Under the pieces are notes generated by a model that worked only from the letters and a program-made list of their open reading frames with translations, searched no databases and had not been told where the DNA came from. Both the position numbers and the translations under genes were made by a program. From sequence record LC494302.1: a stretch of 64,000 nt of DNA; one strand, 5' to 3'. Below are positions 40,003 to 56,352 of this stretch, in pieces (position 1 is the first letter of the stretch; the number at the start of each line of letters is the position of its first letter). This DNA comes from Escherichia phage SP27.

Positions 40003-40030
40003 GCCCATAGGGTGCGGGAGTGTATCTATA
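40003..40030 (+). promoter_or_regulatory. conserved leader box AGCCCAYAGGGTGC..GTGTATCTA
   Basis: one of 7 copies, each about 20-25 nt after a promoter -10. Confidence 0.4.
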
Positions 40031-40169
40031 GAAAAAGTAGTTTAGTATAGTTACAATTGTGCACCCGGTGGGTTAGCTGTTGTCATGGGGTATATTATGC
40101 CAGTACTTGATAATGCTGTCAATACTTTTTTTTTAATATTCAGTACTGAAAACTATTTTTAAAAAGTAC

Positions 40170-40320
40170 TTGCAAACTATGTTTAAAGGCGTATAATGTT
40201 TTACATCAGGACGGGGAACGAAATAAGTAACTTCCCGTTAAGTAGCCCAGGAGTAAGGCACACGAAAAACTCCCCTGATAAAATAGTTTGACAATTGTTT
40301 TTAAAAGCGTATAATACTTA
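40170..40320 (+). promoter_or_regulatory. dual-promoter cassette with structured leader (copy 1)
   Basis: TTGCAA/TATAAT, then about 70-nt element ATCAGGACGGGGAACG..ACTCCCCTGAT, then TTGACA-16-TATAAT; about 90% identical to 51146..51292. Confidence 0.55.
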
Positions 40321-40347
40321 CATCAACTACTGAATGAGGGTTACAAA

Positions 40348-40959
40348 ATGAAAACTATCACTACTACTACTTATGTTATGGCTTTTTCTGAATTGAACGC
40401 AGAACAACAAACGTCAGCTATCGAACTGGTTCGGGAACGTGAAAAAAACTTAAACGATGATTATTTTTCTGAAAGTGAAATTGAATACTATAAAGAAACA
40501 GTACTACCGGAATATGGCATTAATGACGCTGAAATACAATTCAGTGGCTTTTGGTCCCAGGGTGACGGTGCATCAATCAGTACTGACCACGTTGACGCAG
40601 TGAAGTTTTTACGCAAGGTAAGAGCATTAACTAAGTATCGCTCAATCCGTCACTTGCTGAATGAAGATGATTTGGCGATGAGTGTAAAGCGTTCGCACTC
40701 CCACTACTCGCATGAGAATACTGTAAGCGGGTACATTGAATCGGCTTACACTGATTTAACCGCAAAACAAGAAACGTTAGTTAATGAGCTTGAGGAACTA
40801 CTCACTGAAACTATTCGTGAATTATCCCGCAAGTTGTACCGTGATTTAGAGAATGCATATGAGGATCAATTCACTACTGAAAACATTACGGCACTGATTG
40901 AGGGTAACGAATATCAATTCAATGTTATTGATGGAGTAGTAGAATCAATCGAATATTAA
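40348..40959 (+). CDS. hypothetical acidic protein (203 aa)
   Basis: TTGACA/TATAAT promoter and GAGGG RBS upstream. Confidence 0.6.
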   Translation: MKTITTTTYVMAFSELNAEQQTSAIELVREREKNLNDDYFSESEIEYYKETVLPEYGINDAEIQFSGFWSQGDGASISTDHVDAVKFLRKVRALTKYRSIRHLLNEDDLAMSVKRSHSHYSHENTVSGYIESAYTDLTAKQETLVNELEELLTETIRELSRKLYRDLENAYEDQFTTENITALIEGNEYQFNVIDGVVESIEY

Positions 40960-40971
40960 TTTAAAAAGTAC

Positions 40972-41034
40972 TTGCAAACTAAGTTTAAAAGCGTATAATA
41001 CTTTATATCGAGGCGGGGAGTGGTTCCCCGCTCA
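40972..41034 (+). promoter_or_regulatory. PeSL cassette
   Basis: TTGCAA-16-TATAAT + hairpin GGCGGGGAGTGGTTCCCCGCTC. Confidence 0.65.
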
Positions 41035-41049
41035 AACGAGGATTTAAAA

Positions 41050-41289
41050 ATGGCTAGTACTAAAACTTACAACGGACACAAAAACAAAACTCATTGGAAT
41101 GTAAGCCTTTGGATTAATAACGGTGAGTCATTGTATCGGCTTGCTCAAAGTTGCATCGCACAAAGTAGAACTAAAGATATTGCTGCGGAATGTATGTACC
41201 GCAGATTAAAAGCCAACGGTACTACTACAACGCCGGACGGCTTTAAGTATAGCACTACTGCGATCCGTGCTGCAATGGTTGGAATGTAA
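41050..41289 (+). CDS. hypothetical protein, family C (paralog of 39009..39248)
   Basis: PeSL + GAGGA RBS before ATG 41050. Confidence 0.65.
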   Translation: MASTKTYNGHKNKTHWNVSLWINNGESLYRLAQSCIAQSRTKDIAAECMYRRLKANGTTTTPDGFKYSTTAIRAAMVGM

Positions 41290-41346
41290 TATTCAGTACT
41301 GAGATAATGGCGGGAACTATTACCCGCCTTTACTGAGGGTTATCTA

Positions 41347-41634
41347 ATGAGTAAAGTAATAAAGTACAATGTGTTAAGCAAATCATTGTCTATCAGTGAA
41401 TGCACCGATGGTTTTTGGATGTACGATGAAACGCGTGGCATGAATTTAGCTATGCGTGCAAAAACTGCTGAGGCGGCGTATATTCAAGCACTGGAATACT
41501 ACCAGGAACGTTTGAAGGAAGTAGAAGAAGATTATAAAAGCCTCAAAGCGAAAGTAGATCATTTCGTCGGTCAATTCGTGGAAGACAACGACGAGGACGG
41601 GCACTACTGCGACCGTTGCGGATCTTACAGTTAA
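41347..41634 (+). CDS. hypothetical protein
   Basis: hairpin then GAGGG RBS; 95 aa, C-terminal CDRC. Confidence 0.55.
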   Translation: MSKVIKYNVLSKSLSISECTDGFWMYDETRGMNLAMRAKTAEAAYIQALEYYQERLKEVEEDYKSLKAKVDHFVGQFVEDNDEDGHYCDRCGSYS

Positions 41635-41651
41635 GTACTAAGGATTATATA

Positions 41652-41864
41652 ATGAGTGATTTAATTGAACGTATCAAAGAGCTTGAAGAAAAAGAATTGC
41701 AGTTGATCGGGTTACGGAATAAAGTATTCCATGATTTAGGTGGCTTTATTAATGCCTGGGATAGTGGCGATCCTGATGCGTTACCTGCTAACCGCCAGGC
41801 GATGATCAATGATGTGCGTGGTGTCTTTGATTATGTTTTAAAAGTACTAGACACTAAGCAATAA
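41652..41864 (+). CDS. hypothetical protein
   Basis: AAGGA RBS before ATG 41652. Confidence 0.5.
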   Translation: MSDLIERIKELEEKELQLIGLRNKVFHDLGGFINAWDSGDPDALPANRQAMINDVRGVFDYVLKVLDTKQ

Positions 41865-41925
41865 AGGCGTATAATACTTTATATTGGTACTGACAAACAT
41901 TATAAGCGATGCAGGAGCTTTAATC

Positions 41926-42111
41926 ATGACAACATTATCTGAGGTTATCCGCGATCAAGCTGCAAAGGCTGGAATGACTGTTATCAATGTAGGGATCAAG
42001 ATTGAGATCTCCCCTAACGAGTTGCAAGGGATTCCCGATCCTACTAGCTGGGATCGTGCTGGGCGAATGATGAGTAATGCTTCATTACTGGACGGTACAA
42101 AATTTAATTAA
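41926..42111 (+). CDS. hypothetical protein
   Basis: AGGAG RBS before ATG 41926. Confidence 0.5.
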   Translation: MTTLSEVIRDQAAKAGMTVINVGIKIEISPNELQGIPDPTSWDRAGRMMSNASLLDGTKFN

Positions 42112-42118
42112 AAAGTAC

Positions 42119-42180
42119 TTGCAATTAGTTTTCAGTACTGTATAATGGTTTACATCAAAGGGAGAAATGGTTCTCCCTGG
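42119..42180 (+). promoter_or_regulatory. PeSL cassette
   Basis: TTGCAA-16-TATAAT + hairpin GGGAGAAATGGTTCTCCC. Confidence 0.65.
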
Positions 42181-42196
42181 TAATGAGGAAAATACA

Positions 42197-42418
42197 ATGG
42201 CTAATATCACTACTCTTTCCCAACTGGAAGCACTGGTTAAATCTATGCGGGAACATGCCGACAAAATCGGCGTACAAGATCCAGCCGTTTGCTTCTGCGA
42301 CGAATTGAATGATGATACACTGGTAATAGCAGAAGTCCAGGACGTTTCTAACTATTCCTCGCGTTACACTGGCGGCGTAGCAAATAAAGGTGACTTCTGT
42401 TTATACCTTACAAAATAA
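42197..42418 (+). CDS. hypothetical protein
   Basis: PeSL + GAGGA RBS before ATG 42197; followed by hairpin terminator. Confidence 0.6.
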   Translation: MANITTLSQLEALVKSMREHADKIGVQDPAVCFCDELNDDTLVIAEVQDVSNYSSRYTGGVANKGDFCLYLTK

Positions 42419-42421
42419 CAA

Positions 42422-42452
42422 CGCGGGGAGATAATAACTCCCCGTTACTTTT
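42422..42452 (+). terminator. rho-independent terminator
   Basis: CGGGGAGATAATAACTCCCCG + TTACTTTTT. Confidence 0.6.
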
Positions 42453-42586
42453 TCAGTACTGAATCATTTAATAGACGGATCTCGGCACCCGGTGGGTTAG
42501 TGACTGTTTCGTCTTGATGTAGTAATTATGCCAGTACTGGATGCACTTGTCAACAACTATTTTTCAAATACTTTTTATTAAAATAC

Positions 42587-42645
42587 TTGCAATTAGTTTT
42601 TAAACGCGTATAATGTTTTGCATAGGGGGAGCGGTTCCCCTGGTA
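42587..42645 (+). promoter_or_regulatory. PeSL cassette
   Basis: TTGCAA-16-TATAAT + hairpin GGGGGAGCGGTTCCCC. Confidence 0.65.
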
Positions 42646-42661
42646 ACTAAGGAATAATAAA

Positions 42662-42898
42662 ATGCTTGAACAAATCAAATCAACGTCTGCGAATGTAACG
42701 GGAACGGTTGTACACTTTACTAGTGATGAATCGCGGGGCGTTCCCTATTGTGCTGTACATGTAAACACTGATGGCAACTACTGGTTTACGGTTTACGGAT
42801 CATATTCATTTGGACGGCCAGGGCATCAAAAAATTCTGGATAAAGTACAACCAACGGGTAAAAATATCACTGCCGAAATGTTTTATAAAAAATCATAA
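42662..42898 (+). CDS. hypothetical protein
   Basis: PeSL + AAGGA RBS; 78 aa. Confidence 0.6.
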   Translation: MLEQIKSTSANVTGTVVHFTSDESRGVPYCAVHVNTDGNYWFTVYGSYSFGRPGHQKILDKVQPTGKNITAEMFYKKS

Positions 42899-42903
42899 AG
42901 TAC

Positions 42904-42965
42904 TTGCAATTAGTTTTTAGTACTGTATAATATTTTACATCGCAAGGGGAAACGGTTTCCCCTGG
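42904..42965 (+). promoter_or_regulatory. PeSL cassette
   Basis: TTGCAA-16-TATAAT + hairpin GGGGAAACGGTTTCCCC. Confidence 0.65.
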
Positions 42966-42982
42966 TAACTAAGGATAATCAA

Positions 42983-43282
42983 ATGAAAATTGCAATCATC
43001 GCCCTGGCTTTATCTGTTTCCTCTTTCGCTGTTAATGCGTCGTTAGATGTAAGTAGTGAAAAATTCATTCAGTGCACTGTTGCAATGACCGATGAAAGAA
43101 CTGGCGAGATTGTATTAAAGGATTTAGAGATCCAGCCGGAAGCATTTAAAAACGGCCCGTTCCATGAAGAAGACGAAAACGGTAGCACGACAATTTATTA
43201 TGATGCCAGTTCCAAGCGTGGATCGGTCACTGTAATGGATACTGAGAAAGTAACACACACAGGCGTTATTAATTGCCGTTGA
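42983..43282 (+). CDS. hypothetical secreted protein
   Basis: PeSL + AAGGA RBS; signal peptide MKIAIIALALSVSSFAVNA. Confidence 0.6.
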   Translation: MKIAIIALALSVSSFAVNASLDVSSEKFIQCTVAMTDERTGEIVLKDLEIQPEAFKNGPFHEEDENGSTTIYYDASSKRGSVTVMDTEKVTHTGVINCR

Positions 43283-43303
43283 TAGATACTACGGGGTAAC
43301 ATC

Positions 43304-43534
43304 ATGACTAAGCGAATTGTTTTACTTAACGAAAGCAGTACTACACAACTACTTAACGCCGTGCATTATGATATTGAAACGAGCGTTAATCTTATCAGTA
43401 CTGTAGTACTGTTGGACACTGGAAAGGTCGCCAATGATAAAGCGATTGCAGGTATATTAACGGATCTTGAGCCTGGTAGCAGTGCACCCATAACGTTAAA
43501 TGGTAAAGTGTTTAATATTTTACTCACTGATTAA
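43304..43534 (+). CDS. hypothetical protein
   Basis: GGGG RBS; 76 aa; followed by hairpin terminator. Confidence 0.55.
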   Translation: MTKRIVLLNESSTTQLLNAVHYDIETSVNLISTVVLLDTGKVANDKAIAGILTDLEPGSSAPITLNGKVFNILLTD

Positions 43535-43540
43535 GTACAT

Positions 43541-43568
43541 AGCCCACCAGGTGGGCTTTTTTGTTTTT
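43541..43568 (+). terminator. rho-independent terminator
   Basis: AGCCCACCAGGTGGGCT + TTTTTGTTTTT. Confidence 0.7.
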
Positions 43569-43616
43569 ATAGTATCGTAGTACTGAGATACTTTGAAAAT
43601 AGTTTTAAGAAAGTAG

Positions 43617-43700
43617 TTGACATTACCACAGAAAAGCGTAGAATGTATTACATCAAGACGGGGAGCACTAAGTAGACCGCCAGTAAGTCGAACGAAAAAC
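43617..43700 (+). promoter_or_regulatory. promoter + divergent structured leader
   Basis: TTGACA-16-TAGAAT then ACATCAAGACGGGGAGC.. element partly similar to the 40200/51180 leader. Confidence 0.4.
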
Positions 43701-43767
43701 TGGACACGTCGAGAAAACTTTGATACACTAATAAACGTAAACTAAACTTTAATTGAGGATTTATAAA

Positions 43768-44250
43768 ATGGCTAATGTAAAATCATTCATCAAAGCACTG
43801 GTAGCAAATGAAACTAACGTCGCGGCTGAGATCCTGGCTGAACTGGATAACGATACCATGAAAGCGGTACGCAATAATTTTAACATCGCGTACAGTACTG
43901 CGAAAGAACTACAAGCAAATAAAGCGGCAGAAATTGAAGCGGCAAAGGCGGCCCGTGAAGCAGAACTACAAGCAACAATCGAAAGTATCCAGGCGGCGGT
44001 GTCTGGATTGGATCTGGAAGTGGTTGTGGAAATGGCACATAAAGCCCTGGCGGTTAAGTATGGTGAAGATAAGCCAGAATCTAAACCTAAAAAATGGATT
44101 CAAGAACGTGTTACTGTAGTACTTGATAACGGGGAAGAACATATGATTCCTGTACGCGGTAACTGCATTGCGGTAGTACTGGACGCTATCAAAGAAAGCG
44201 GTATGACTCGCGAGGAATGGATCGAAGCTCATCGCAAAGTTGAAGCATAA
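43768..44250 (+). CDS. hypothetical protein with Ala/Glu-rich helical segment
   Basis: GAGGA RBS before ATG 43768; followed by hairpin terminator. Confidence 0.6.
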   Translation: MANVKSFIKALVANETNVAAEILAELDNDTMKAVRNNFNIAYSTAKELQANKAAEIEAAKAAREAELQATIESIQAAVSGLDLEVVVEMAHKALAVKYGEDKPESKPKKWIQERVTVVLDNGEEHMIPVRGNCIAVVLDAIKESGMTREEWIEAHRKVEA

Positions 44251-44271
44251 CAATTAAAGTACTGAATCACT

Positions 44272-44300
44272 AGCCCACCTTAAACAGTGGGCTTTTTTGT
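44272..44300 (+). terminator. rho-independent terminator
   Basis: AGCCCACC..AGTGGGCT + TTTTTGTG. Confidence 0.65.
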
Positions 44301-44309
44301 GTCTGTAGT

Positions 44310-44410
44310 ATTCCAGTCCACCAGCACCGCCTAGAATCGATTCTAACGCATTAAACTGATTATCTGATGCATTGCCCTAGCTGGTGGCGTGAAGGTCGTT
44401 AGAATGCGAT
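44310..44410. repeat. nested imperfect inverted repeats
   Basis: CCACCAGC..GCTGGTGG and AGAATCGATTCTAACGC / CGTTAGAATGCGATT arms. Confidence 0.4.
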
Positions 44411-44452
44411 TGAGAGCGTTTAAAGTATTTTGCAAAAAGTAATAAAAAGTAC

Positions 44453-44515
44453 TTGCACGATTAAGAGATTAGCGTATAATGTTTTACATCGAGAGGGGGA
44501 AACGGTTCTCCTTCC
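44453..44515 (+). promoter_or_regulatory. PeSL cassette
   Basis: TTGCAC..TATAAT + hairpin GAGGGGGAAACGGTTCTCCTTC. Confidence 0.6.
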
Positions 44516-44535
44516 AAATCAAAGGAATCAAAACA

Positions 44536-44763
44536 ATGGCTATTATCATTACTCGCGTATCTGGTACTACTGGCAACGAACAAGTAGTTGCAGTCATTAC
44601 CAACAAGGAAGGTGCGGAATTGCAAAATGCAATGAATACCTGGGCCGTTAATGAGTTCGGTCAGTGGGCAAGTGTAGCATACATTGAAACCTATCAAGTG
44701 CCGTCGATTAGTTTAACTGATTTGGGCGTTGAGCGTATCCTTTGCCTGGATGAATTAAATTAA
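44536..44763 (+). CDS. hypothetical protein
   Basis: PeSL + AAGGAA RBS before ATG 44536. Confidence 0.6.
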   Translation: MAIIITRVSGTTGNEQVVAVITNKEGAELQNAMNTWAVNEFGQWASVAYIETYQVPSISLTDLGVERILCLDELN

Positions 44764-44771
44764 AAAAGTAC

Positions 44772-44831
44772 TTGCAAAGTAAATCGAATAAAGTATAATA
44801 CATTACATCAAGGGGAGAAATGGTTCTCCCC
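44772..44831 (+). promoter_or_regulatory. PeSL cassette
   Basis: TTGCAA-16-TATAAT + hairpin GGGGAGAAATGGTTCTCCCC. Confidence 0.65.
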
Positions 44832-44848
44832 ACTACAAGGAAACTAAA

Positions 44849-44992
44849 ATGAAAACTTGTCAATGTGGTCAGAAATCTATTACGGGTTTAAAGCGGGGCG
44901 TTGCTCTTTGCCAGTACCATTATAATTTACAAGTATGGGGTAAAGAATGGGCCGACCAGGTGGAAGCAGCAAAGAAAGCAAAAAGTAAGTAA
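44849..44992 (+). CDS. hypothetical small Cys-containing protein (47 aa)
   Basis: PeSL + AAGGAAA RBS; ORF MKTCQCGQKSITGLKRGVALCQYHYN...; below track cutoff. Confidence 0.45.
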   Translation: MKTCQCGQKSITGLKRGVALCQYHYNLQVWGKEWADQVEAAKKAKSK

Positions 44993-45002
44993 AAATATTA
45001 TC

Positions 45003-45040
45003 ACAGTACTATTGACATAGTTTGATAGTACTGGCATAAT
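45003..45040 (+). promoter_or_regulatory. palindromic-operator promoter
   Basis: AGTACTATTGACATAGTTTGATAGTACT: TTGACA-17-CATAAT flanked by AGTACTAT/ATAGTACT inverted repeat. Confidence 0.55.
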
Positions 45041-45073
45041 AGATTTTATCAAGACAACTAAGAGGAAATTAAA

Positions 45074-45418
45074 ATGGCTAACATCAATACTATAGCAGCA
45101 CAAAATATCAACCTGTCTTCTGTTGAAGTTGTACACATTGCCGCCCGGCGTTGGTTCCAGGCGTCTTATGGTAATACTTATTTCTCTTTAACGGTAGATG
45201 TTGAAATCAATGGCGAATTTATTGAAGTAGTAAACGTGCCGTTCCAATATGGCTACGGGGATCATTTTGACACTGTAGCAATGGAAGAATTTAGCAAGGT
45301 TATTAATATGGAAGGTAAAGAGTTTTTACGCGGTTCTTATCTTTCCCGTTTTTGCCGTGATAATAATATCACTGTTTATAGTTCGGTAACTGATGTTAAA
45401 CGCAAAAAAGATCTTTAA
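45074..45418 (+). CDS. hypothetical protein, family B (paralog of 51957..52280)
   Basis: palindromic promoter + AGAGGAA RBS; shared GNTY..YGYG..DVKRKKD. Confidence 0.6.
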   Translation: MANINTIAAQNINLSSVEVVHIAARRWFQASYGNTYFSLTVDVEINGEFIEVVNVPFQYGYGDHFDTVAMEEFSKVINMEGKEFLRGSYLSRFCRDNNITVYSSVTDVKRKKDL

Positions 45419-45498
45419 TTAGCTTTACTTTATGCAGATACTTTGATATAGTGTCTGCATAGGGGAAAGAAATTAAATTAACTTAAGAGGATAGTATA

Positions 45499-45768
45499 AT
45501 GAAAAATATCAGTACTTTAATCGATGCAGGTACACATGTTCGGCGGTCTATGGTTGCAACCAGTACTACAAAACAAGTAGCGAGCGGTTATCTTGTATTT
45601 GTGCACGATGGAAAACTCCTGGAACGTTCAATCAATTTTGATGTTAAAAACAATTGCCGTTTTATTATCTTTAAGCGTGAGCAATATAAAATTGATTTAC
45701 CAGCAAAGCCCATTAGTGGGGCGTACAACGTGCAATCAATGTTTGAACGTCAACCATACACCTATTAA
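45499..45768 (+). CDS. hypothetical protein
   Basis: AGAGGA RBS; 89 aa. Confidence 0.55.
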   Translation: MKNISTLIDAGTHVRRSMVATSTTKQVASGYLVFVHDGKLLERSINFDVKNNCRFIIFKREQYKIDLPAKPISGAYNVQSMFERQPYTY

Positions 45769-45819
45769 TCAAAACATCGTTAGCGGTCGATTCAGGCCGC
45801 TTATATTGGGGATTATACC

Positions 45820-46092: not shown

Positions 46093-46097
46093 TTAAT

Positions 46098-46357: not shown

Positions 46358-46376
46358 ACTAATTAAGGAATATGAA

Positions 46377-46523: not shown

Positions 46524-46526
46524 TAC

Positions 46527-50285: not shown

Positions 50286-50291
50286 AAACTA

Positions 50292-50352
50292 TTGACAATA
50301 GATTATAGTACTGTATAATAAGTTACATGAAGGGGAGAAATGATTCTCCCCA
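50292..50352 (+). promoter_or_regulatory. PeSL cassette
   Basis: TTGACA-17-TATAAT + hairpin GGGGAGAAATGATTCTCCCC. Confidence 0.65.
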
Positions 50353-50368
50353 CTGAGAGGAAAGAAAA

Positions 50369-50581
50369 ATGCAAGGTCAACTAATCGTTCGTAAATGGTC
50401 TGATACTAACGAAAAACCGTGGGATGTACAATACATCGGACCGGATGGGGTATCACGTTATCAGCCTGGCGTAACGCATAGTACTGAGCAATATGCCGCC
50501 GCTCACCGCGAACGCCTGTTAGAATCCATGAAACAGGGATTCTGTGAAAAATTCATTCAAGATCATTGGCTGAAAGATTAA
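50369..50581 (+). CDS. hypothetical protein
   Basis: PeSL + GAGAGGAAA RBS; 70 aa. Confidence 0.6.
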   Translation: MQGQLIVRKWSDTNEKPWDVQYIGPDGVSRYQPGVTHSTEQYAAAHRERLLESMKQGFCEKFIQDHWLKD

Positions 50582-50598
50582 TAGAAGGAGTACAGCTT

Positions 50599-50691
50599 AT
50601 GCAAATGAATCCGATGATTATTGTTTTAGCTGTACTTATGATCATTCATGCAATTGTAGAAGTATTAACGCAATCAGGAGTAATAAAATGA
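50599..50691 (+). CDS. possible tiny hydrophobic peptide (30 aa)
   Basis: AAGGAG RBS; MQMNPMIIVLAVLMIIHAIVEVL... Confidence 0.35.
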   Translation: MQMNPMIIVLAVLMIIHAIVEVLTQSGVIK

Positions 50692-50861
50692 TTCAAGTAG
50701 AATTATCAGTACTGAAAGATCTGTTTTATCGGTTAGGTACTACTGGAGAGTATCCTAAAAGTGATACCGCAAAACTTTTTGTATCACTCGATTTATGGCA
50801 ACGCGAACAATTAGTAATGTCCTGGCGTAAAGGTAAAGCAGATAGCGAGGTGAAAGCATGA
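50688..50861 (+). CDS. hypothetical small protein (57 aa)
   Basis: ATGA overlap with upstream stop; GGAG nearby. Confidence 0.4.
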   Translation: MIQVELSVLKDLFYRLGTTGEYPKSDTAKLFVSLDLWQREQLVMSWRKGKADSEVKA

Positions 50862-51007
50862 AAGAATTCTTATTCGAAGTAGTGTTTCAAGGTGTCGGTA
50901 GTAATCAATTGATTCGCTCAAGTGGTTACAATGTTAACCAGGCATGGAATAACATTAAACAAATGTACCCGAACGCTATCACATATCGCAACCCAAAAGA
51001 AGTTTAA
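50858..51007 (+). CDS. hypothetical small protein (49 aa)
   Basis: ATGA overlap; followed by terminator. Confidence 0.4.
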   Translation: MKEFLFEVVFQGVGSNQLIRSSGYNVNQAWNNIKQMYPNAITYRNPKEV

Positions 51008-51016
51008 AAATAATTG

Positions 51017-51048
51017 AAAAAGGGATTGACTCCGGTCAGTCCCTTTGC
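51017..51048 (+). terminator. terminator/promoter module (GGGATTGACTCCGGTCAGTCCC type)
   Basis: AAAAAGGGATTGACTCCGGTCAGTCCCTTTGCTATTATAT. Confidence 0.65.
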
Positions 51049-51061
51049 TATTATATACGCA

Positions 51062-51092
51062 TAGAAACAAATCAGCCCACCGGGTGCATAAA
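51062..51092 (+). promoter_or_regulatory. conserved leader box
   Basis: AGCCCACCGGGTGCATAAATGTATCTATTG. Confidence 0.4.
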
Positions 51093-51145
51093 TGTATCTA
51101 TTGTTTGCTGGTGGCTAGTACTGAAAACTATTTTTAAAAAAGTAC

Positions 51146-51292
51146 TTGCATTGTACTTAGAATCAAGTATAATGTTTTACATCAGGACGGGGAACGAAAC
51201 AAGTAACCCCGTTAAGTAGTCCAGGAGTAAGACATACGAAAAACTCCCCTGATAAAATAGTTTGACAATAGAAAGTAAACGAGTATAATACT
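51146..51292 (+). promoter_or_regulatory. dual-promoter cassette with structured leader (copy 2)
   Basis: about 90% identical to 40170..40320 with compensatory changes in the hairpin (CGGGG..CCCCG). Confidence 0.55.
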
Positions 51293-51322
51293 TACATCAA
51301 CCACTGATAAGGAAACATAAAA

Positions 51323-51598
51323 ATGCGGATTCTACTGACAGCTAACGAAATCGAACAAGTACTGACTACTAACCTGGAAGACTGGAAACGTGAAGCAGAT
51401 ATCCAGGCGGTTCAATGGTTAAATGATAAGTTAACGCCGGATGACTTAAGCAAGATTGTAGATCCTCAATTCTACGAAGATATCCACGACACCGCGTTAA
51501 GCGTCGAGGATGTACTAGATAAGCACTTTATTGATACTGATTTGCAGGTTTACGGTCGTAAAAACTTTATCACTATTCACGACATTTACAATAATTAA
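51323..51598 (+). CDS. hypothetical acidic protein
   Basis: duplicated dual-promoter cassette upstream; AAGGAAA RBS. Confidence 0.6.
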   Translation: MRILLTANEIEQVLTTNLEDWKREADIQAVQWLNDKLTPDDLSKIVDPQFYEDIHDTALSVEDVLDKHFIDTDLQVYGRKNFITIHDIYNN

Positions 51599-51601
51599 GT
51601 A

Positions 51602-51665
51602 TTGACAAAGTATCTTAGTACTGTATAATAGTTTACATCGAGTGAGGGGAAACGGTTCCCCTCCT
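51602..51665 (+). promoter_or_regulatory. PeSL cassette
   Basis: TTGACA-16-TATAAT + hairpin GAGGGGAAACGGTTCCCCTC. Confidence 0.65.
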
Positions 51666-51686
51666 AACAAAGAGAGAGAAATAAAA

Positions 51687-51869
51687 ATGGCTAAGTGCAC
51701 TATCTGCAAGAAAGAAATAGTATTAGTTCCAAGTGCCCGTGAACGTGCCGCTCGGTTCGGTGGCAAAGCGTCAGACTATACAAAAATGTTTACTGCCCAT
51801 ACAGCTTGCCAGGTAGCAAAACGTTCACAAGAAAGCGTAGAATTAATGCGTAAACTTTCCAAAAAATAA
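51687..51869 (+). CDS. hypothetical small Cys-containing protein
   Basis: PeSL + AGAGAGA RBS before ATG 51687; CTICKK...HTAC. Confidence 0.55.
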   Translation: MAKCTICKKEIVLVPSARERAARFGGKASDYTKMFTAHTACQVAKRSQESVELMRKLSKK

Positions 51870-51872
51870 GTA

Positions 51873-51937
51873 TTGACAAAGTATCTTAGTACTGTATAAT
51901 AGTTTACATCAAGTGAGGGGAATGGTTCCCCTCCTAA
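51873..51937 (+). promoter_or_regulatory. PeSL cassette (near-duplicate of 51602)
   Basis: same promoter, hairpin GAGGGGAATGGTTCCCCTC. Confidence 0.65.
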
Positions 51938-51956
51938 CTAAAAGAGAGAAATAAAA

Positions 51957-52280
51957 ATGGCTATGATCCTTGCCCAGAAAGTAGAATTGAAAATTGTAAC
52001 CTCCTTTGACATTAACGTTAATCGGTGGACTGATTCACACGGCAATACTTACCACTCTTGCTACGTGTCTGCGTTAATTGGCGACCGCTGGGAAGACCTG
52101 GGACACGAAACCTTTACATACGGTTACGGTACACAAGGCGAATACACGGGCTTGGAGATCATTAAAGAAACCGTTATAGGTTTCAACCCGAAAGAAAAAG
52201 TTATTCACCGCATCGAGGAAGAGATCAACAAAGAAATAACAGTTCGCTACCACGATGTAAAACGTAAGAAAGACATGTAA
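51957..52280 (+). CDS. hypothetical protein, family B (paralog of 45074..45418)
   Basis: PeSL + AGAGAGA RBS. Confidence 0.6.
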   Translation: MAMILAQKVELKIVTSFDINVNRWTDSHGNTYHSCYVSALIGDRWEDLGHETFTYGYGTQGEYTGLEIIKETVIGFNPKEKVIHRIEEEINKEITVRYHDVKRKKDM

Positions 52281-52292
52281 TAGAATCCATTT

Positions 52293-52331
52293 AAAGTACT
52301 ATTTGACATTGCCCAGATAGTACTTTATAAT
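52293..52331 (+). promoter_or_regulatory. palindromic-operator promoter
   Basis: AGTACTATTTGACATTGCCCAGATAGTACT + TATAAT. Confidence 0.55.
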
Positions 52332-52375
52332 AGACTCTAACTTGTAGTACTAACTCAACTAATAGGATGTATACC

Positions 52376-52771
52376 ATGATTACTAAATTCTACGCTACCC
52401 GTGAAGCTGCCCGTATTGTTGCACGCGAGGAAGGCGAAACATTTAAAGACATGGGCAAAGATGCACCGAAAGGTCAACGCTGGGCCGTACAGTTCAAAGA
52501 GATCTCTGATATTGTGAATTCACCGGAGCCAGTACTAACAGCAGCAGAACTAAAACGAGCGGATTTACTGGCGTCAATACTTGATGCACAAGATGAGTTT
52601 ATCGCTGATTCTGATATCAAAGTACAGACAAACCACACCGCTTGGACTCACGCGGATCACCTGGCAAACCTTAAGCGTCCAAGTGAACTGATTCGCAACC
52701 AGAAAGAGATCCGACACGACCGTAAGGGTAATCGTGTAACAGTATACAGTAAACGCCGCCAGGTTATCTAA
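52376..52771 (+). CDS. hypothetical protein, family A (paralog of 39335..39601)
   Basis: palindromic promoter; AGGA 8 nt before ATG 52376. Confidence 0.6.
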   Translation: MITKFYATREAARIVAREEGETFKDMGKDAPKGQRWAVQFKEISDIVNSPEPVLTAAELKRADLLASILDAQDEFIADSDIKVQTNHTAWTHADHLANLKRPSELIRNQKEIRHDRKGNRVTVYSKRRQVI

Positions 52772-52792
52772 TAACTTGCAGTACTAACAACA

Positions 52793-52820
52793 CGGCGGGA
52801 TCAGTTCCCGCCTTTTTTAT
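52793..52820 (+). terminator. rho-independent terminator
   Basis: GGCGGGATCAGTTCCCGCC + TTTTTTAT. Confidence 0.65.
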
Positions 52821-52832
52821 AGGACAAACAAA

Positions 52833-53087
52833 ATGATTAAGGTTCAACTATATAAAGATAACATCTTACGGGTACACTATAAAGCACCTCAGAGAATCAT
52901 CACAAAGGCCGTACAGCTTGCAAATGAGTTTATTAATGGTAACCTATTACCTAGGAAGTTAAGCAACGGGAAACTGCGTGTAATCGACGTGGACACTAAC
53001 AACAGGATAGTAATCGAGAACACAGGAAAGATAAACCTTTATGAGCATCAACAATACAATAAGAAAATAAAACTAATATCACGTTGA
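52833..53087 (+). CDS. hypothetical protein
   Basis: terminator hairpin then AGGA RBS; 84 aa. Confidence 0.55.
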   Translation: MIKVQLYKDNILRVHYKAPQRIITKAVQLANEFINGNLLPRKLSNGKLRVIDVDTNNRIVIENTGKINLYEHQQYNKKIKLISR

Positions 53088-53140
53088 CAGTACTCAAATG
53101 TTTTAGTACTATATGTACATACCAACACGGGGGAAACAAA

Positions 53141-53383
53141 ATGATTACTTTAGAAAAACGTATCAAAGAAACTACATCGCTGGTGGAACTGTTAACAGTA
53201 CTCAAATGTAAAACAACACCATTCAGCACGCCGGACTTTATTAATATGGTTGATGTTAATGGTCGCTATCGTATCACGGTCGAACAAGGAGCGGCGAAAG
53301 TATTCAGTACTAAAAACACGAAGGAAGTGATCCACGCCGTTAATGTTAAAAAAGTAGTTGCCATTGATAGTAAAGTACTGTAA
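53141..53383 (+). CDS. hypothetical protein
   Basis: GGGGGA RBS before ATG 53141. Confidence 0.5.
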   Translation: MITLEKRIKETTSLVELLTVLKCKTTPFSTPDFINMVDVNGRYRITVEQGAAKVFSTKNTKEVIHAVNVKKVVAIDSKVL

Positions 53384-53414
53384 GATAGTTACATTAACTC
53401 AAGGAGAACATGCA

Positions 53415-53999
53415 ATGCGTAATTATACTAAATTCATCCGTACACTGTCAGAAATGGAAACCAACAAAGAGATCCTTTCAGCTTGTCGGTTAGCTGGCCT
53501 GGAGATCATCGGTGCTGGTTCTTCCCGTATAGTTTTCGCTTTAAATGATCGGTTAGTGATTAAGGTCGCGAATTGTGATGCGGGTGTAGAACAAAATGAA
53601 ACTGAATGTAAGGTATGGAATTTTTTAGACTATGACCGCCCTCAGTTGAAACAGTACTTTGCAAAGGTGCATATGCATTTATGCGATCCTGATAATATGT
53701 TTATCGTTATGGATCGGTTGAGTACTGCAAGTAAAGGCAGTGTGAAGCACGTAAACGCGTGCAATGAATTAAAGTACAATATTAAACGTAATGCAATCGA
53801 CCGCCAGCACCGCTTTGCTGATGCACTACAACACGTTGATGATACATTATCAACACTAACGATAAGAGATATCAGAAAACAGAATATCGGCCAGGATCGT
53901 AATGGACTTATTAAAGTACTTGATTACGGTTTAACCAGCAATATCTGGAATCAGTACTATAAAAAGCGTGATGTGGCAGCAAGTAAGGTAACACGATAA
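53415..53999 (+). CDS. putative protein-kinase-like protein
   Basis: AAGGAG RBS before ATG 53415; glycine-loop IGAGSSRIVF, VIKVA lysine, catalytic-loop-like IRDIRKQNIG, VLDYG (DFG-like). Confidence 0.5.
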   Translation: MRNYTKFIRTLSEMETNKEILSACRLAGLEIIGAGSSRIVFALNDRLVIKVANCDAGVEQNETECKVWNFLDYDRPQLKQYFAKVHMHLCDPDNMFIVMDRLSTASKGSVKHVNACNELKYNIKRNAIDRQHRFADALQHVDDTLSTLTIRDIRKQNIGQDRNGLIKVLDYGLTSNIWNQYYKKRDVAASKVTR

Positions 54000-54009
54000 A
54001 AAAGATTAA

Positions 54010-54040
54010 AAAAGGGATTGACTCCGGTCAGTCCCTTTGC
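54010..54040 (+). terminator. terminator/promoter module
   Basis: AAAAAAGGGATTGACTCCGGTCAGTCCCTTTGCTATTATAT. Confidence 0.65.
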
Positions 54041-54069
54041 TATTATATATCCATTGAGAGATAACTCAC

Positions 54070-54100
54070 TGACCCATAGGGTGCGGAAGTGTATCTATTA
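54070..54100 (+). promoter_or_regulatory. conserved leader box
   Basis: GACCCATAGGGTGCGGAAGTGTATCTATTATATA. Confidence 0.4.
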
Positions 54101-54140
54101 TATAAGTATTCAGTACTGAAAACTATTTTTAAAAAAGTAC

Positions 54141-54200
54141 TTGCATTGTACTTAGAATCAAGTATAATGTTTTATATCGAGAGGGGAAATGGTTCTCCCT
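54141..54200 (+). promoter_or_regulatory. PeSL cassette
   Basis: TTGCAT..TATAAT + hairpin GGGGAAATGGTTCTCCC. Confidence 0.6.
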
Positions 54201-54219
54201 GGCAATAAGGAATAAAATC

Positions 54220-54441
54220 ATGACTACAATGACTTGCATTTACGCTTCCAATCTACTGAATGATGCGGCCTTTAATGTTGATTCAGAATATCAATGTTAT
54301 CGGGATGAAAATAAAAAAGTTTTTGTAGTTGATAATAATGGTTTCCATATTGAATTACAATCCGGCTTCACTGGTGTTGATGGTAAATCAGTATGGGGCG
54401 TACAGGATGATAAAGGCACATATCATTTTAAACGTAATTAA
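54220..54441 (+). CDS. hypothetical protein
   Basis: terminator, leader box and PeSL upstream; AAGGAA RBS. Confidence 0.6.
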   Translation: MTTMTCIYASNLLNDAAFNVDSEYQCYRDENKKVFVVDNNGFHIELQSGFTGVDGKSVWGVQDDKGTYHFKRN

Positions 54442-54444
54442 GTA

Positions 54445-54505
54445 TTGACAAAGTATACCAGTACTGTATAATAGTTTACATCAAGGGGAGAATAGTTCTC
54501 CCCGA
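54445..54505 (+). promoter_or_regulatory. PeSL cassette
   Basis: TTGACA-16-TATAAT + hairpin GGGGAGAATAGTTCTCCCC. Confidence 0.65.
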
Positions 54506-54525
54506 TACTAAAAGGAAACAAAATT

Positions 54526-54798
54526 ATGTCCAGCTACTCCGCTACTATGATCATTAAAGATATGAACGGTAATCCTACTTCTGCTGGTGGATCATTTGGA
54601 AACATTAATTTAGATGGTCGGTTATCCATGCAATCAGCAATCGATGCAGCGAAAGAAGTTTTTAAGAATGAATGTACTGTTAGTAAGCTGGATTATATGG
54701 GATTTGCTATCGAAAAAACTAATCGTTTTGTGGACTACAAAAAACCACTGATGATTGATACTAACCTGAAAGCAAACGAAGTGGAGTACTTATTATGA
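54526..54798 (+). CDS. hypothetical protein
   Basis: PeSL + AAGGAAA RBS; 90 aa. Confidence 0.6.
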   Translation: MSSYSATMIIKDMNGNPTSAGGSFGNINLDGRLSMQSAIDAAKEVFKNECTVSKLDYMGFAIEKTNRFVDYKKPLMIDTNLKANEVEYLL

Positions 54799-54986
54799 CA
54801 GTTGAAGAAGTTAAAAAAGTACTGGCAGTACTACGCTATCATAATCATTGTAAGGTGAAGAATGATCCTGATTATCTTGATTCATCCCTGGAAGAGGATA
54901 CACTACAAGCAATAAGCCATATGCAAACATTAGCAAAGCGTATGACCGAAAAGAATAGACCGGACTATATCGGAAATAAAATTTAA
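54795..54986 (+). CDS. hypothetical protein
   Basis: ATGA overlap with upstream stop; 63 aa. Confidence 0.5.
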   Translation: MTVEEVKKVLAVLRYHNHCKVKNDPDYLDSSLEEDTLQAISHMQTLAKRMTEKNRPDYIGNKI

Positions 54987-54994
54987 AAAGTACT

Positions 54995-55055
54995 TGCATT
55001 GTAGTTAGATTAACGTATAATGTTTTACATAGAGCGGGGGAATAGTTCTCCCGCC
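54995..55055 (+). promoter_or_regulatory. PeSL cassette
   Basis: TTGCAT..TATAAT + hairpin GCGGGGGAATAGTTCTCCCGC. Confidence 0.65.
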
Positions 55056-55072
55056 AGTCCAGGAGATACACC

Positions 55073-55336
55073 ATGAACACTATCGAAATCACTATCAATG
55101 CACACGTATACGACAACGTAATCATGCAAACTACTATGACCGCTAATGATACCAGTACTTTGCGGAATACTGTTATTAGTGCCGTATGTGCCGCTATCGG
55201 TGATGTCGCCCTGGAAAATGCAGAACATATCAACAACGGTTTCACTATGTGCAAGCGTGATAACGCAAAACATATCATCGTAGAAGGTTACGGCGGTGTA
55301 GAATTTAATGTTTATATGAAAAAAGTACTTGCATAA
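55073..55336 (+). CDS. hypothetical protein
   Basis: PeSL + AGGAGA RBS; 3' end overlaps next PeSL. Confidence 0.6.
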   Translation: MNTIEITINAHVYDNVIMQTTMTANDTSTLRNTVISAVCAAIGDVALENAEHINNGFTMCKRDNAKHIIVEGYGGVEFNVYMKKVLA

Positions 55337-55387
55337 TAACTAAAACAAAGTATAATGTTTTGCATAGGGGGAGATATCCTCCCCCAC
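55329..55387 (+). promoter_or_regulatory. PeSL cassette
   Basis: TTGCAT..TATAAT + hairpin GGGGGAGATATCCTCCCCC. Confidence 0.65.
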
Positions 55388-55403
55388 TAAAAGGAGTAAT
55401 AAA

Positions 55404-55628
55404 ATGGCTAACTTTGATGAACTGATGCGGGAAGTAGCTAACCTGGCAGAAGAGAAGAAATCATTCGATTCTATCTATAACACCGCTCATCGTGATTCAG
55501 TACTGGCATGTACTCAGGATCAAAAAGATGAACTAATCGCCACCTATCATGAAGCATGGAAGTACTACCGACAATGGGAGAAAGAAGAAAGAGAGTCTAC
55601 CATTGACGGCCTCAACAATCTAATCTAA
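55404..55628 (+). CDS. hypothetical protein
   Basis: PeSL + AAGGAG RBS; 74 aa. Confidence 0.6.
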   Translation: MANFDELMREVANLAEEKKSFDSIYNTAHRDSVLACTQDQKDELIATYHEAWKYYRQWEKEERESTIDGLNNLI

Positions 55629-55639
55629 AAGTTTTATTT

Positions 55640-55676
55640 CAGTACTATTGACATAGCTTGATAGTACTGATGTAAT
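55640..55676 (+). promoter_or_regulatory. palindromic-operator promoter
   Basis: AGTACTATTGACATAGCTTGATAGTACT + TGTAAT. Confidence 0.5.
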
Positions 55677-55704
55677 AACTTTACTAACTACAAGGGGAAA
55701 CATA

Positions 55705-55962
55705 ATGGAACAGTTCACACAATATCGGGTAAATCCTCAAGCTATGGCCTACGTAGAAGACCATAAAACATTACCAGTACTAACACCAATTAAAGGCCAT
55801 ATCTATCGTGCAATGTCATGGAATACCGCCCAGGATGGATATACTACCGCTGGCGTGGGTATGTATTGCGGGAATGGTGAATGGTTTGATCCAAATAATC
55901 CGGTAGCCATTGACAGTACTGAAAAAATGAAATGGGCCGACTACATCGAAGATATTTCATAA
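55705..55962 (+). CDS. hypothetical protein
   Basis: palindromic promoter + GGGGAAA RBS; 85 aa. Confidence 0.55.
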   Translation: MEQFTQYRVNPQAMAYVEDHKTLPVLTPIKGHIYRAMSWNTAQDGYTTAGVGMYCGNGEWFDPNNPVAIDSTEKMKWADYIEDIS

Positions 55963-55968
55963 AACTAT

Positions 55969-56031
55969 TTGACAGTACTAACCAGTAATGTATAATGTTT
56001 TACATAGAGCGGGGGAATAGTTCTCCCGCCA
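55969..56031 (+). promoter_or_regulatory. PeSL cassette
   Basis: TTGACA-16-TATAAT + hairpin GCGGGGGAATAGTTCTCCCGC. Confidence 0.65.
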
Positions 56032-56051
56032 ATAGTTTGGAGTAAAACATT

Positions 56052-56252
56052 ATGTCTATCGCTATCGCCCTGGTTGAAGTACTGAAAGAAGCTAAAGCCA
56101 ACCAGATCGACGTAAAGATCCAGGAACTACAAAACGGCGTAATCGGCTGTACTTGTACCGCTGGTGGAGCGGCAGACTATCGAGAACACGAATCACTCGA
56201 ATCACTGGTTCGGTATCTTACCATGATCGTTGATGATTGGAGAATCATCTAA
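56052..56252 (+). CDS. hypothetical protein
   Basis: PeSL + GGAG RBS; followed by terminator. Confidence 0.6.
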   Translation: MSIAIALVEVLKEAKANQIDVKIQELQNGVIGCTCTAGGAADYREHESLESLVRYLTMIVDDWRII

Positions 56253-56267
56253 CAAAAAAGAATAAAA

Positions 56268-56298
56268 AAGGGATTGACTCCGGTCAGTCCCTTTGCTA
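56268..56298 (+). terminator. terminator/promoter module
   Basis: AAAAAAGGGATTGACTCCGGTCAGTCCCTTTGCTATTATAT. Confidence 0.65.
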
Positions 56299-56324
56299 TT
56301 ATATACGCATAGACAAAAACTAGC

Positions 56325-56352
56325 CCACAGGGTGCATAGGTGTATCTAAAAT
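56325..56352 (+). promoter_or_regulatory. conserved leader box
   Basis: AGCCCACAGGGTGCATAGGTGTATCTAAAATATA. Confidence 0.4.

Follow-up and report, generated by a model that had tools for sequence, protein, structure and literature searches.

What is the short box that recurs downstream of promoters in Escherichia phage SP27, and is it read in the DNA or in the RNA? The question was raised by a preliminary description, drawn from the sequence alone, of seven copies in a stretch of 64,000 nucleotides of this phage (record LC494302.1; the window, at its full length, hereafter). Here we show that the box belongs to a module that is conserved across the genera of Rak2-like phages, confined to the terminal repeat, structurally constrained and tied to promoters. 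We file it as a promoter-proximal structured leader or non-coding RNA of the phage early region, outside every described family. Its reading as a leader element coupled to promoters was supported, and that it serves to bind a factor is plausible.

The recurrence of the box was borne out. Its exact core CCCAYNGGGTGC occurs nine times in the window against 0.02 expected, and the 14-mer AGCCCAYAGGGTGC occurs ten times with up to two mismatches against 0.29 expected. A covariance model (R1), built from eight copies and run without filters over the window, gave ten matches at E <= 1.3e-5, and the following match reached only E = 0.15. Six copies lie on the + strand and four on the - strand. The cores of their second hairpin (HP2) are at 40004, 47046, 48720, 51076, 54073 and 56324 on the + strand, and at 37922, 38138, 40072 and 42496 on the - strand. 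The six + strand copies listed in the preliminary description were thus real, at positions within ~14 nt of those that it gave, but its seventh, at 38075, proved to be a degenerate half, and the four full - strand copies had been overlooked. The two halves of the box had been placed five nucleotides apart. This literal pattern has no match even at three mismatches, because the halves are N4 apart and the second, GTGTATCTA, is variable (GTAACT, CCGTCT, ACGCCC). The pairing of GGGTGCGG with a downstream CCGCACCC, seen earlier in two copies, is likewise not a feature of the element; it is produced because two modules face each other (40004 on the + strand with 40072 on the - strand, and 38075 on the + strand with 38138 on the - strand). 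Read 5' to 3', the module consists of the start A, a first hairpin (HP1), the linker (A)CUA, HP2, G-N, a purine-rich pentamer and a tail. Start sites are predictions, taken as the A of cAU 7 nt past the -10. About one third of the copies, here called the short type, have an A/C-rich unpaired run in place of HP1. The ten modules and the half copy are as follows.

37896 to 37978, - strand: module 10 (62.7 bits); promoter TTGCTT-16-TATAAT, predicted start ~37944; HP1 AGUC/GACU with loop GAGAAA, HP2 GCCCACCGGGU at 37913-37923, then the tail.
38066 to 38094, + strand: degenerate half copy (38075); CTGCTAGGGTGCGGGAGTGTATCC followed by a T-run, undetected by the covariance model.
38112 to 38194, - strand: module 9 (57.1 bits); promoter TTGACT-16-TATAAT, predicted start ~38160; HP1 CGC/GCG with loop GAGAAA, HP2 CCCCAGAGGGU at 38129-38139, then the tail.
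39950 to 40030, + strand: module 1; promoter TTGACT-17-TGgCATAAT, predicted start ~39985; HP1 GGC/GCC with loop AGAUAA, HP2 GCCCAUAGGGU at 40003-40013, tail GCGGGAGUGUAUCUAUA.
40046 to 40122, - strand: module 8; promoter TTGACA-17-TGgCATAAT, predicted start ~40087; short type without HP1, HP2 ACCCACCGGGU at 40063-40073.
42470 to 42553, - strand: module 7 (62.6 bits); promoter TTGACA-17-TGgCATAAT, predicted start ~42518; HP1 GAC/GUC, HP2 ACCCACCGGGU at 42487-42497.
46984 to 47072, + strand: module 2; terminator-like hairpin with the -35 (46984-47011), promoter TTGACT-17-TGcTATTAT, predicted start ~47026; HP1 UGAG/CUCA with loop AGAUAG, HP2 GCCCACAGGGU at 47045-47055, then the tail.
48663 to 48746, + strand: module 3 (62.6 bits); promoter TTGACA-17-TGgCATAAT, predicted start ~48698; HP1 GACG/CGUC with loop AGAA, HP2 ACCCAUAGGGU at 48719-48729, tail with GUAACU.
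51019 to 51102, + strand: module 4; hairpin/promoter module at 51019-51046, predicted start ~51061; short type, HP2 GCCCACCGGGU at 51075-51085, then the tail.
54011 to 54099, + strand: module 5; hairpin/promoter module at 54011-54038, predicted start ~54053; HP1 UGAG/CUCA with loop AGAUAA, HP2 ACCCAUAGGGU at 54072-54082, then the tail.
56267 to 56350, + strand: module 6; hairpin/promoter module at 56267-56294, predicted start ~56309; short type, HP2 GCCCACAGGGU at 56323-56333, then the tail.

The half copy at 38075 is the decayed inverted partner of module 9, without the CCCA half and without a good promoter. Modules 1 and 8 are convergent and form an imperfect palindrome of ~150 bp, and the segment 39985-40136 folds with z = -4.5.

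Where in the genome do the modules lie? Megablast of 39000-57000 against phage genomes revealed 92-97% identity to jumbo coliphages of the Asteriusvirus type, namely CRJP21, fEgEco12, E9.1, G17 and phAPEC6 (350-380 kb; Rak2-like group). The direct terminal repeat (DTR) of fEgEco12 measures 20,993 bp, as identified with PhageTerm and verified experimentally by restriction mapping (PMC13070987). Since position 1 of fEgEco12 aligns at 36822, the corresponding part of the window is:

36822 to 57750, strand not applicable: DTR-equivalent, right boundary approximate.

All ten modules lie inside this ~21-kb region, and the fEgEco12 DTR holds ten syntenic matches to the covariance model. Beyond the repeat, the model found no match either in the other 43 kb of the window or in 50 kb of fEgEco12 past its DTR (21501-71500). 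A search for the box elsewhere, as proposed in the preliminary description, added the four - strand copies and none in the window beyond 36822 to 57750. Genome-wide confinement is here judged from the window, these 50 kb of fEgEco12 and a whole-contig pattern scan.

The distribution among other phages was determined by two scans. The pattern CCCAYNGGGTGCNNNNNTGTAWCT, run over 2.9 million viral contigs, hit 15 loci, 12 of which belong to contigs between 109 and 378 kb long, the majority in the range 345-378 kb; the other three represent one coding-like sequence without a promoter and were rejected as chance. In contigs of the 121Q, Rak2, GAP32 and CBB types, the pattern matched one or two short loci per genome. 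Rak2-like loci yielded 79 model matches (73 distinct), and ~75 distinct copies were found across contigs of the Rak2, GAP32, CBB, 121Q and Yersinia fHe-Yen9-04 types. A second scan retrieved viral loci with the literal core ACTAACCC-N3-4-GGGTGC (14 specified bases). Within the 652 kb returned, matches at E <= 1e-4 came solely from Rak2-like contigs, with one borderline locus (L048, E = 8e-4). The box was absent from the DTR of the related Pseudomonas jumbo phage PA5oct and from 20 kb of the early region of an rV5-like phage, which has DTR genes in common. Among 596 Gb of bacterial and archaeal genomes, a 24-nt pattern gave 31 scattered single matches with low model scores and none in Enterobacterales. 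A pattern of ~34 bits is expected, by hand estimate, to give tens of matches by chance, and a host origin of the box was rejected on these grounds.

How firmly is the box tied to promoters? In every copy it starts 20-29 nt downstream of a near-consensus sigma-70 -10 (21-28 nt in the window), as had been noticed for the six + strand copies. Eight of the ten box promoters in the window combine a 17-bp spacer with a TGn extended -10. Among 75 unique copies from the clade, 73 have a sigma-70 promoter scoring at least 9/12 at 20-29 nt upstream, as compared to 5.4% of random positions; the two remaining copies have a promoter scoring 8/12 with TG. The extended -10 is present in 49 of the 75. The distance from -10 to box is bimodal (20-22 nt in 21 copies, 25-29 nt in 52), with orientation and the 20-29-nt range invariant. 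The copies are not fragments of one duplication unrelated to promoters, although a longer duplicated cassette is common to four copies in the window. Four copies were correctly described as following a terminator/promoter module: GGGATTGACTCCGGTCAGTCCC occurs exactly three times (51022, 54014, 56270) and as a variant at 46984-47011. In these four modules the promoter is fused to a terminator-like hairpin that contains the -35, and the other six have no stem-loop there.

The box promoters are one kind among several. The DTR-equivalent contains ~45 strong sigma-70 promoters, and ~25 others than those of the boxes stand directly ahead of genes and have no box. Between 38400 and 57000 three classes could be distinguished, namely TTGACA-16-TATAAT (11 perfect), TTGCAA-16-TATAAT (~11), preceded by UP-like AAAACTATTTTTAAAAAAGTAC, and the 17-bp-spacer class with extended -10. 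Promoters of the first two classes are followed by GC-rich 5' hairpins (GGGGAA..TTCCCC) and then by a ribosome binding site (RBS). In contrast, no box promoter in the window adjoins a gene directly; one or more further promoters intervene, 147-344 nt away. The second promoter claimed to follow the box was found before the next gene in all six + strand copies. Module 2 is followed by a promoter at 47114 and a gene start at 47193, module 3 by a promoter at 48779, module 4 by two more promoters ahead of the gene at 51323, module 5 by one more ahead of the gene at 54220, and module 6 by a promoter at 56415 and a gene start at 56497. The remaining box promoters face a terminator (module 7), a convergent module (40004/40072) or DNA free of open reading frames (ORFs; 37922 and 38138). 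As a separate observation, each gene within the terminal repeat has its own promoter, and in the 50 kb just past the fEgEco12 repeat (21501-71500, L165) genes crowd together and overlap, and promoter cassettes between them are almost absent.

Is the conserved sequence, then, a signal in the transcript? HP1 has 3-5 bp of free sequence, beginning at +3 to +6 from the predicted start, and occurs as 28 distinct stems. In an alignment of the module fitted to the model, and hence biased toward pairing, 90.5% of cells were paired, as compared to 75% in shuffled alignments (0/500 reached the observed value) and 17-60% with slid partners. The three inner pairs of HP1 were filled by GC 27, CG 16, UA 2 and GU 1; by CG 20, AU 15, GC 3 and UA 3; and by AU 19, CG 13 and GC 7, with 0-2 unpaired cells each, and the top mutual-information pairs all fall within HP1. 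Its loops are purine-rich: GCGAAA (13), GAGAAA (11), AGAUAA (9) and AGAACAA (6). HP2 has the form R-CCC-(3-4 nt)-GGG-U and was predicted independently by RNAalifold. Two of its C-G pairs are invariant, and the third is C-G in 68 copies, U-A in 3, from three different phage contigs, and U·G in 2; the CCU/AGG variants are compensatory. Its closing pair is A-U in 40 and G·U in 30 copies, and the loops seen are ACA, AUA, ACC, AGA, UAUA, UAGA, UCAA and UUUA, of 3 or 4 nt. The leader folds at -2.47 kcal/mol as compared to -0.75 for shuffles (p = 2e-9). The tail after the pentamer, U-N-Y-R-U-C-Y-R-U, is conserved and single-stranded, with U at position 6 in 74/76 and C at position 11 in 71/76. Three features place the signal in the transcript and not in duplex DNA, namely a constant position near the 5' end, compensatory changes in HP1 as well as HP2, and the variable length of the HP2 loop.

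Other readings of the RNA itself were tried and rejected. A leader-tail pseudoknot or long-range pairing was not supported, as duplexes of leaders with their own tails had an energy of -3.88 kcal/mol and cross-pairings one of -4.24 kcal/mol (permutation p = 0.97). On inspection of the sequences for a mini-ORF or start-stop, NUG at tail 5-7 was present in 43/76 only, with an SD-like (Shine-Dalgarno-like) GGAG abutting, and frames were not conserved. A leaderless peptide from a 5' AUG would be available in one or two copies only.

The preliminary description had considered a protein-binding site or an activator-dependent promoter element plausible. As a duplex-DNA signal, the box would serve either as an operator or as the target of an activator for a second promoter, dependent on a factor and with its -10 in TATCTAT(A/T); HP1 would then be an unrelated 5' hairpin. 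HP2 is indeed a partial DNA palindrome, and a hexamer resembling a -10, T-A-T-W-N-T at tail 12-17, is partly conserved (T12 62/76, A13 57/76, T17 40/76). The middle promoters of T4 have a spacing from MotA box to -10 that resembles the 11 nt between GGGTGC and this hexamer, and a protein of the DksA/TraR zinc-finger type is encoded in the DTR. However, T at tail 17, the key -7 base, is present in 40/76 only, and the MotA-box consensus is absent: no match to (a/t)3TGCTT(t/c)A, which in T4 stands ~12 bp upstream of a -10, overlaps HP2 or the tail, those 27-94 nt downstream being AT-rich chance matches. The proposed arrangement of GGGTGC ~16 nt before TATAAT was accordingly weak. HP2 also accepts unrelated loops of 3 and 4 nt (ACA, AUA, UAUA, UCAA, UUUA) together with pairing-preserving changes on both arms, and a rigid site in duplex DNA would not easily allow the spacing between the halves to change by one base. 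The invariant orientation and distance to the upstream -10 speak against this reading too; the strict coupling to an upstream start (75/75) would be left unexplained, and antisense and terminator-facing copies would drive nothing. We regard a signal in duplex DNA as very unlikely.

The position of the module would also suit a passive 5' element without a dedicated partner, whose hairpins aid promoter escape, block backtracking or shield the triphosphate from RppH and RNase E, conservation then reflecting a constraint on the initially transcribed region. HP1 starts 2-5 nt from the predicted 5' end, the module is strictly 5'-proximal in 75/75 copies, and 5' hairpins are also found at box-less promoters of the same region. 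A hairpin a few nucleotides from the end is the geometry of 5' stabilisers such as the ompA leader in E. coli mRNA decay. HP1 is weak for such a role (-2 to -5 kcal/mol) and missing in one third of the copies, however, and the box-less leaders have far stronger GC hairpins of free sequence. Furthermore, a generic stabiliser would not need a near-invariant CCC...GGGUG and tail across genera with 30-55% protein identity. We consider a purely passive role quite unlikely. Since HP2 is nearly invariant while the shared DTR proteins are 30-55% identical, selection on the RNA is strong and a constrained partner is implied.

In the tail, the spacing GG(HP2)-N8-U-G would correspond to that of the consensus elemental pause. 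The module might act as a hairpin-stabilised pause that holds up the polymerase ~40-45 nt past the start. It would then load no factor and form a roadblock or insulator at the borders of cassettes and where a block of genes ends. This would agree with the near-invariant U at tail 6, with an HP2 that ends 8-9 nt before it, and with the location of the modules, which directly follow terminator hairpins, face the terminators at gene ends or form convergent pairs. Yet the +1 G is found in 43/76 only, the best-conserved tail bases (C11, U14) lie beyond the putative pause, the stem has just 3-4 bp, and HP1 and the linker would go unexplained. A pause as the sole function thus appears highly improbable.

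What could the RNA do instead? The class of mechanism that we put forward, tentatively and as a real possibility that falls somewhat short of probable, is a cis-acting tag that is recognised by a protein and marks one class of early transcripts. In the terminal repeat, which holds the early genes, the E. coli sigma-70 polymerase would transcribe from a dedicated class of very strong promoters (17-bp spacer, mostly TGn), and the box would be the core of a small folded RNA module with which these transcripts begin. Acting in cis, the module would mark the RNA, nascent or early, for recognition by a trans-acting factor of phage or host, and this factor would separate tagged transcripts from the many box-less early mRNAs. 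The most likely route would be a modification of the transcribing polymerase, as at a loading site of the nut or LoaP-leader kind, and a pause at GG-N8-UG could give time for loading. Alternatively, the tag might set RNA stability or processing. In modules that lie opposite a terminator or a second module, the tag would be carried by a short non-coding or antisense RNA.

Several results weigh against such a tag. HP1 is replaced by an unpaired run in the short-type copies, its measured pairing comes from the model-fitted alignment, and RNAalifold on the full gappy alignment recovered HP2 but not HP1. HP2 itself has only 3-4 bp, two of which never vary. The start sites are predicted from the promoters. 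The + strand units that follow terminators in the window have their own promoters, and therefore antitermination would not be needed for their expression. Convergent pairs would yield complementary RNAs, which no cis model specifically predicts. Neither of two known signals was found near the boxes: boxA (YGCUCUUUA-like, up to one mismatch) is absent from -30 to +120 of the ten boxes, and ops, GGCGGTAGnnTG with up to two mismatches, is absent near any box. Finally, no RNA-binding, N/Q-type or NusG-type domain was detected in the DTR ORFs scanned, N proteins being small and hard to detect by profiles. For this partner search, 40 of the ~53 + strand DTR ORFs were compared with Pfam and the ten most widely conserved also with PHROGs.

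The same scans found four ORFs with recognisable domains, which comprise a C4 zinc finger of the DksA/TraR type (E = 1.6e-10), an acetyltransferase of the GNAT family, a toxin domain resembling ParE (E = 6e-11) and a weak match to protein kinases; otherwise they gave domains of unknown function only. These ORFs are:

48990 to 49247: DTR ORF with a recognisable domain.
49311 to 49667: DTR ORF with a recognisable domain.
52833 to 53087: DTR ORF with a recognisable domain.
53358 to 53999: DTR ORF with a recognisable domain.

The most widely conserved protein of the DTR, of 203 aa (40348-40959; phrog_5162, function not assigned), has 399 homologues, including some in rV5-like coliphages of ~135-143 kb. 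It was rejected as the specific partner, because rV5-like phages carry the protein and have no box in their early region.

Is the RNA always part of a longer transcript? Module 7 is antisense between + strand genes and reads into a terminator, which would cut its transcript at ~100-107 nt:

42424 to 42444, both strands: bidirectional intrinsic terminator, CGGGGAG-loop-CUCCCCG.

Among the 73 copies in relatives, most have a promoter and a gene downstream, ~14 end 20-50 nt past the tail at a bidirectional terminator common to a convergent gene, and ~15 are in convergent pairs. In two copies (L015:12602 and L027:2059) the module is the direct 5' untranslated region (UTR) with RBS and ATG, and therefore module RNA can extend into mRNA. 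From these varied downstream contexts it follows that the module is a portable promoter-plus-leader unit, whose RNA can form a long 5' UTR, run antisense or remain short and non-coding.

These contexts bear on the possibility of multi-copy, trans-acting small RNAs, which would either sequester an RNA-binding protein or nuclease of the host, as decoys or sponges, or regulate by seed pairing. The conserved HP1, HP2 and tail would be the active part, abundantly transcribed from ~10 strong promoters (20 with both repeats) upon entry of the repeat. Module 7 (42518 to ~42412, - strand) is a self-contained unit from promoter to terminator of ~107 nt, the ~14 terminated copies of relatives resemble it in this respect, and no box promoter in the window is directly 5' of a gene. 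Copy number and promoter strength would suit a stoichiometric decoy. A precedent exists in the related jumbo phage PA5oct, which makes abundant non-coding RNAs from its terminal repeat (PMC7318152), but PA5oct itself is without the box. Most copies have no terminator and continue into the promoter and gene that come next, in two the module is itself the 5' UTR, and convergent pairs would give complementary, mutually neutralising RNAs. With 38 sites in the window against 37.5 expected, the tail complement shows no enrichment, and the idea of seed targets was rejected. We therefore judge small RNAs acting in trans unlikely as compared to a tag in cis.

Does the module belong to a known family? 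Rfam 15 gave no match at gathering score over the whole window, and at E <= 5 gave four weak matches in 36500-57000, none of which overlaps a module; ARAGORN found no tRNA or tmRNA in the window. As a stand-alone small RNA, with own promoter and terminator and a length of 50-250 nt, only module 7 and the ~14 terminated copies of relatives would qualify, and the majority would not. We know of no convincing likeness to a CRISPR-repeat mimic, a ToxI-like repeat, a CsrA/Hfq site or a TRAP site, for which the loops are too variable.

Closest in plan is the nut site of lambda, also a compact (~35-nt) early-leader signal that occurs in multiple copies, is read in RNA and has a conserved sequence beside a small hairpin with a purine-rich, GNRA-like loop (compare GCGAAA and GAGAAA of HP1). 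Unlike nut, the module has its hairpin first and no boxA. Set beside boxB, HP1 has stems of 3-5 bp and of free sequence and loops of 6-7 nt rather than 5, and it is absent from about a third of the copies. The invariant part of the module is its second hairpin, its ten copies each have their own promoter and lie at +15 to +33, the Pfam and PHROGs scans found no N-like protein, and downstream units have promoters of their own. The put sites of HK022 and leaders of the LoaP type are likewise structured RNAs just past early or operon promoters that act in cis on the polymerase, as is proposed for the module, and put also has two stem-loops. However, put is about twice as long with larger stems, LoaP systems are bacterial operon leaders, the module has no sequence similarity to either, and no NusG-like gene was seen in the DTR. 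The ops element of RfaH shares a 12-nt conserved leader, a GG-N8-YG pause and a small hairpin-forming core. Its hairpin forms in non-template DNA inside the bubble, whereas the CCC arm of the module would already be outside the bubble at the putative pause; its sequence is unrelated, and covariation in the module reaches HP1, upstream in the RNA.

The 5' stabilisers and conserved initially transcribed regions at strong early promoters of phages (T5, T7 and ompA-type leaders) share the strictly 5'-terminal hairpin near the start, behind exceptionally strong promoters for the host polymerase in a terminal repeat with early genes. Unlike the module, they are not invariant in sequence across genera and have no second conserved hairpin or tail. 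Four of the ten modules resemble the PeSL of T4-type phages (PMC2839356, PMC4122927): they open with a stem-loop joined to an early sigma-70 promoter close to consensus, and they stand at the borders of cassettes, among the small ORFan genes of a hyperplastic early region. A PeSL ends in the Shine-Dalgarno and start codon of the next gene (PMC4122927), an arrangement not seen in any box promoter of the window, in contrast to the conserved structured leader and second promoter found here. The box is absent from any described PeSL, and six of the ten modules have no -35 stem-loop. Papers on CBB, PA5oct, fEgEco12 and Sharanji report RpoD-like promoters, UP elements and terminal repeats (PMC7318152 and PMC13070987 among them); the leader is undescribed in the literature searched on these four phages.

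What would such an RNA mean for the phage? That the module supplies the RNA half of a previously undescribed system by which Rak2-like jumbo phages control early transcription, either a polymerase-modifying loading site or a multi-copy pre-early decoy, is possible, though we hold it to be rather doubtful. As a loading site, ten copies per repeat would turn host polymerase that started at this one promoter class into a complex resistant to termination or collision; as a decoy, they would titrate a factor conserved in enterobacteria during the first minutes after infection. Either form would be a new RNA-protein system in a group without a known regulatory RNA. Rak2-like jumbo phages are widely isolated for therapy, and their early programme, with hundreds of ORFans, is almost wholly unannotated; a covarying module that marks one class of host-polymerase transcripts would be a handle on pre-early and early expression. 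It predicts ~10-20 abundant non-coding 5' RNA domains per infecting genome, and its sequence could be used as bait for an interacting factor. Annotation also needs correction, since box promoters should not be assigned to the gene that follows and the modules are overlapped by spurious ORFs. The compact covariance model could serve in recognising terminal-repeat early regions in jumbo-phage contigs.

Several minor observations were made in the same region. A Fur-box-like palindrome (GAGAATGATAATCATTTAC, GCGAATGAGAATCATT) lies between convergent box modules in several relatives, and the convergent pair 40004/40072 of the window is without it. The loci concerned are:

L015, 6037 to 6161: locus with a Fur-box-like palindrome.
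L002, 1230 to 1356: locus with a Fur-box-like palindrome.
L003, 282 to 414: locus with a Fur-box-like palindrome.
L020, 8028 to 8159 and 2778 to 2819: loci with a Fur-box-like palindrome.

A second repeated leader, non-coding GGACGGGGAACGAAAYAAGTAAC...CCAGGAGTAAG...CTCCCCTGATAAAATAG, occurs at 40205-40285 and 51190-51260, placed between a promoter termed class A and a TTGACA-16-TATAAT promoter. The + strand terminators at 43541-43557 and 44272-44293 have stems AGCCCACC...GGTGGGCT, whose 5' arm AGCCCACC equals the first eight bases of the box; this may be a coincidence or a hint at the origin of HP2. After module 3, a cluster of TGATCA palindromes (TTGATCAAAAAATGATCTGATCAATACTTGATCAA) at 48750-48800 overlaps the next promoter.

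The leftmost ~1.7 kb of the genome (36822-38490) contains no ORFs but several promoters on both strands, and module 10, within it, is oriented toward the physical genome end. At 37567-37726 this stretch carries an array with 8-bp periodicity (GGATGGCT / AGACGGCT / AAACGGCT), and the ORF-free left end with its array could be an origin or a packaging- or terminus-related region. The palindrome CAGTACTG occurs 64 times in the whole window as compared to ~1 expected, most densely at 36740-38420. It is found in coding as well as non-coding DNA, in promoter spacers (..CAGTACTGGCATAAT) and around UP elements, and looks like a genome-wide site for protein binding or one related to modification or restriction.

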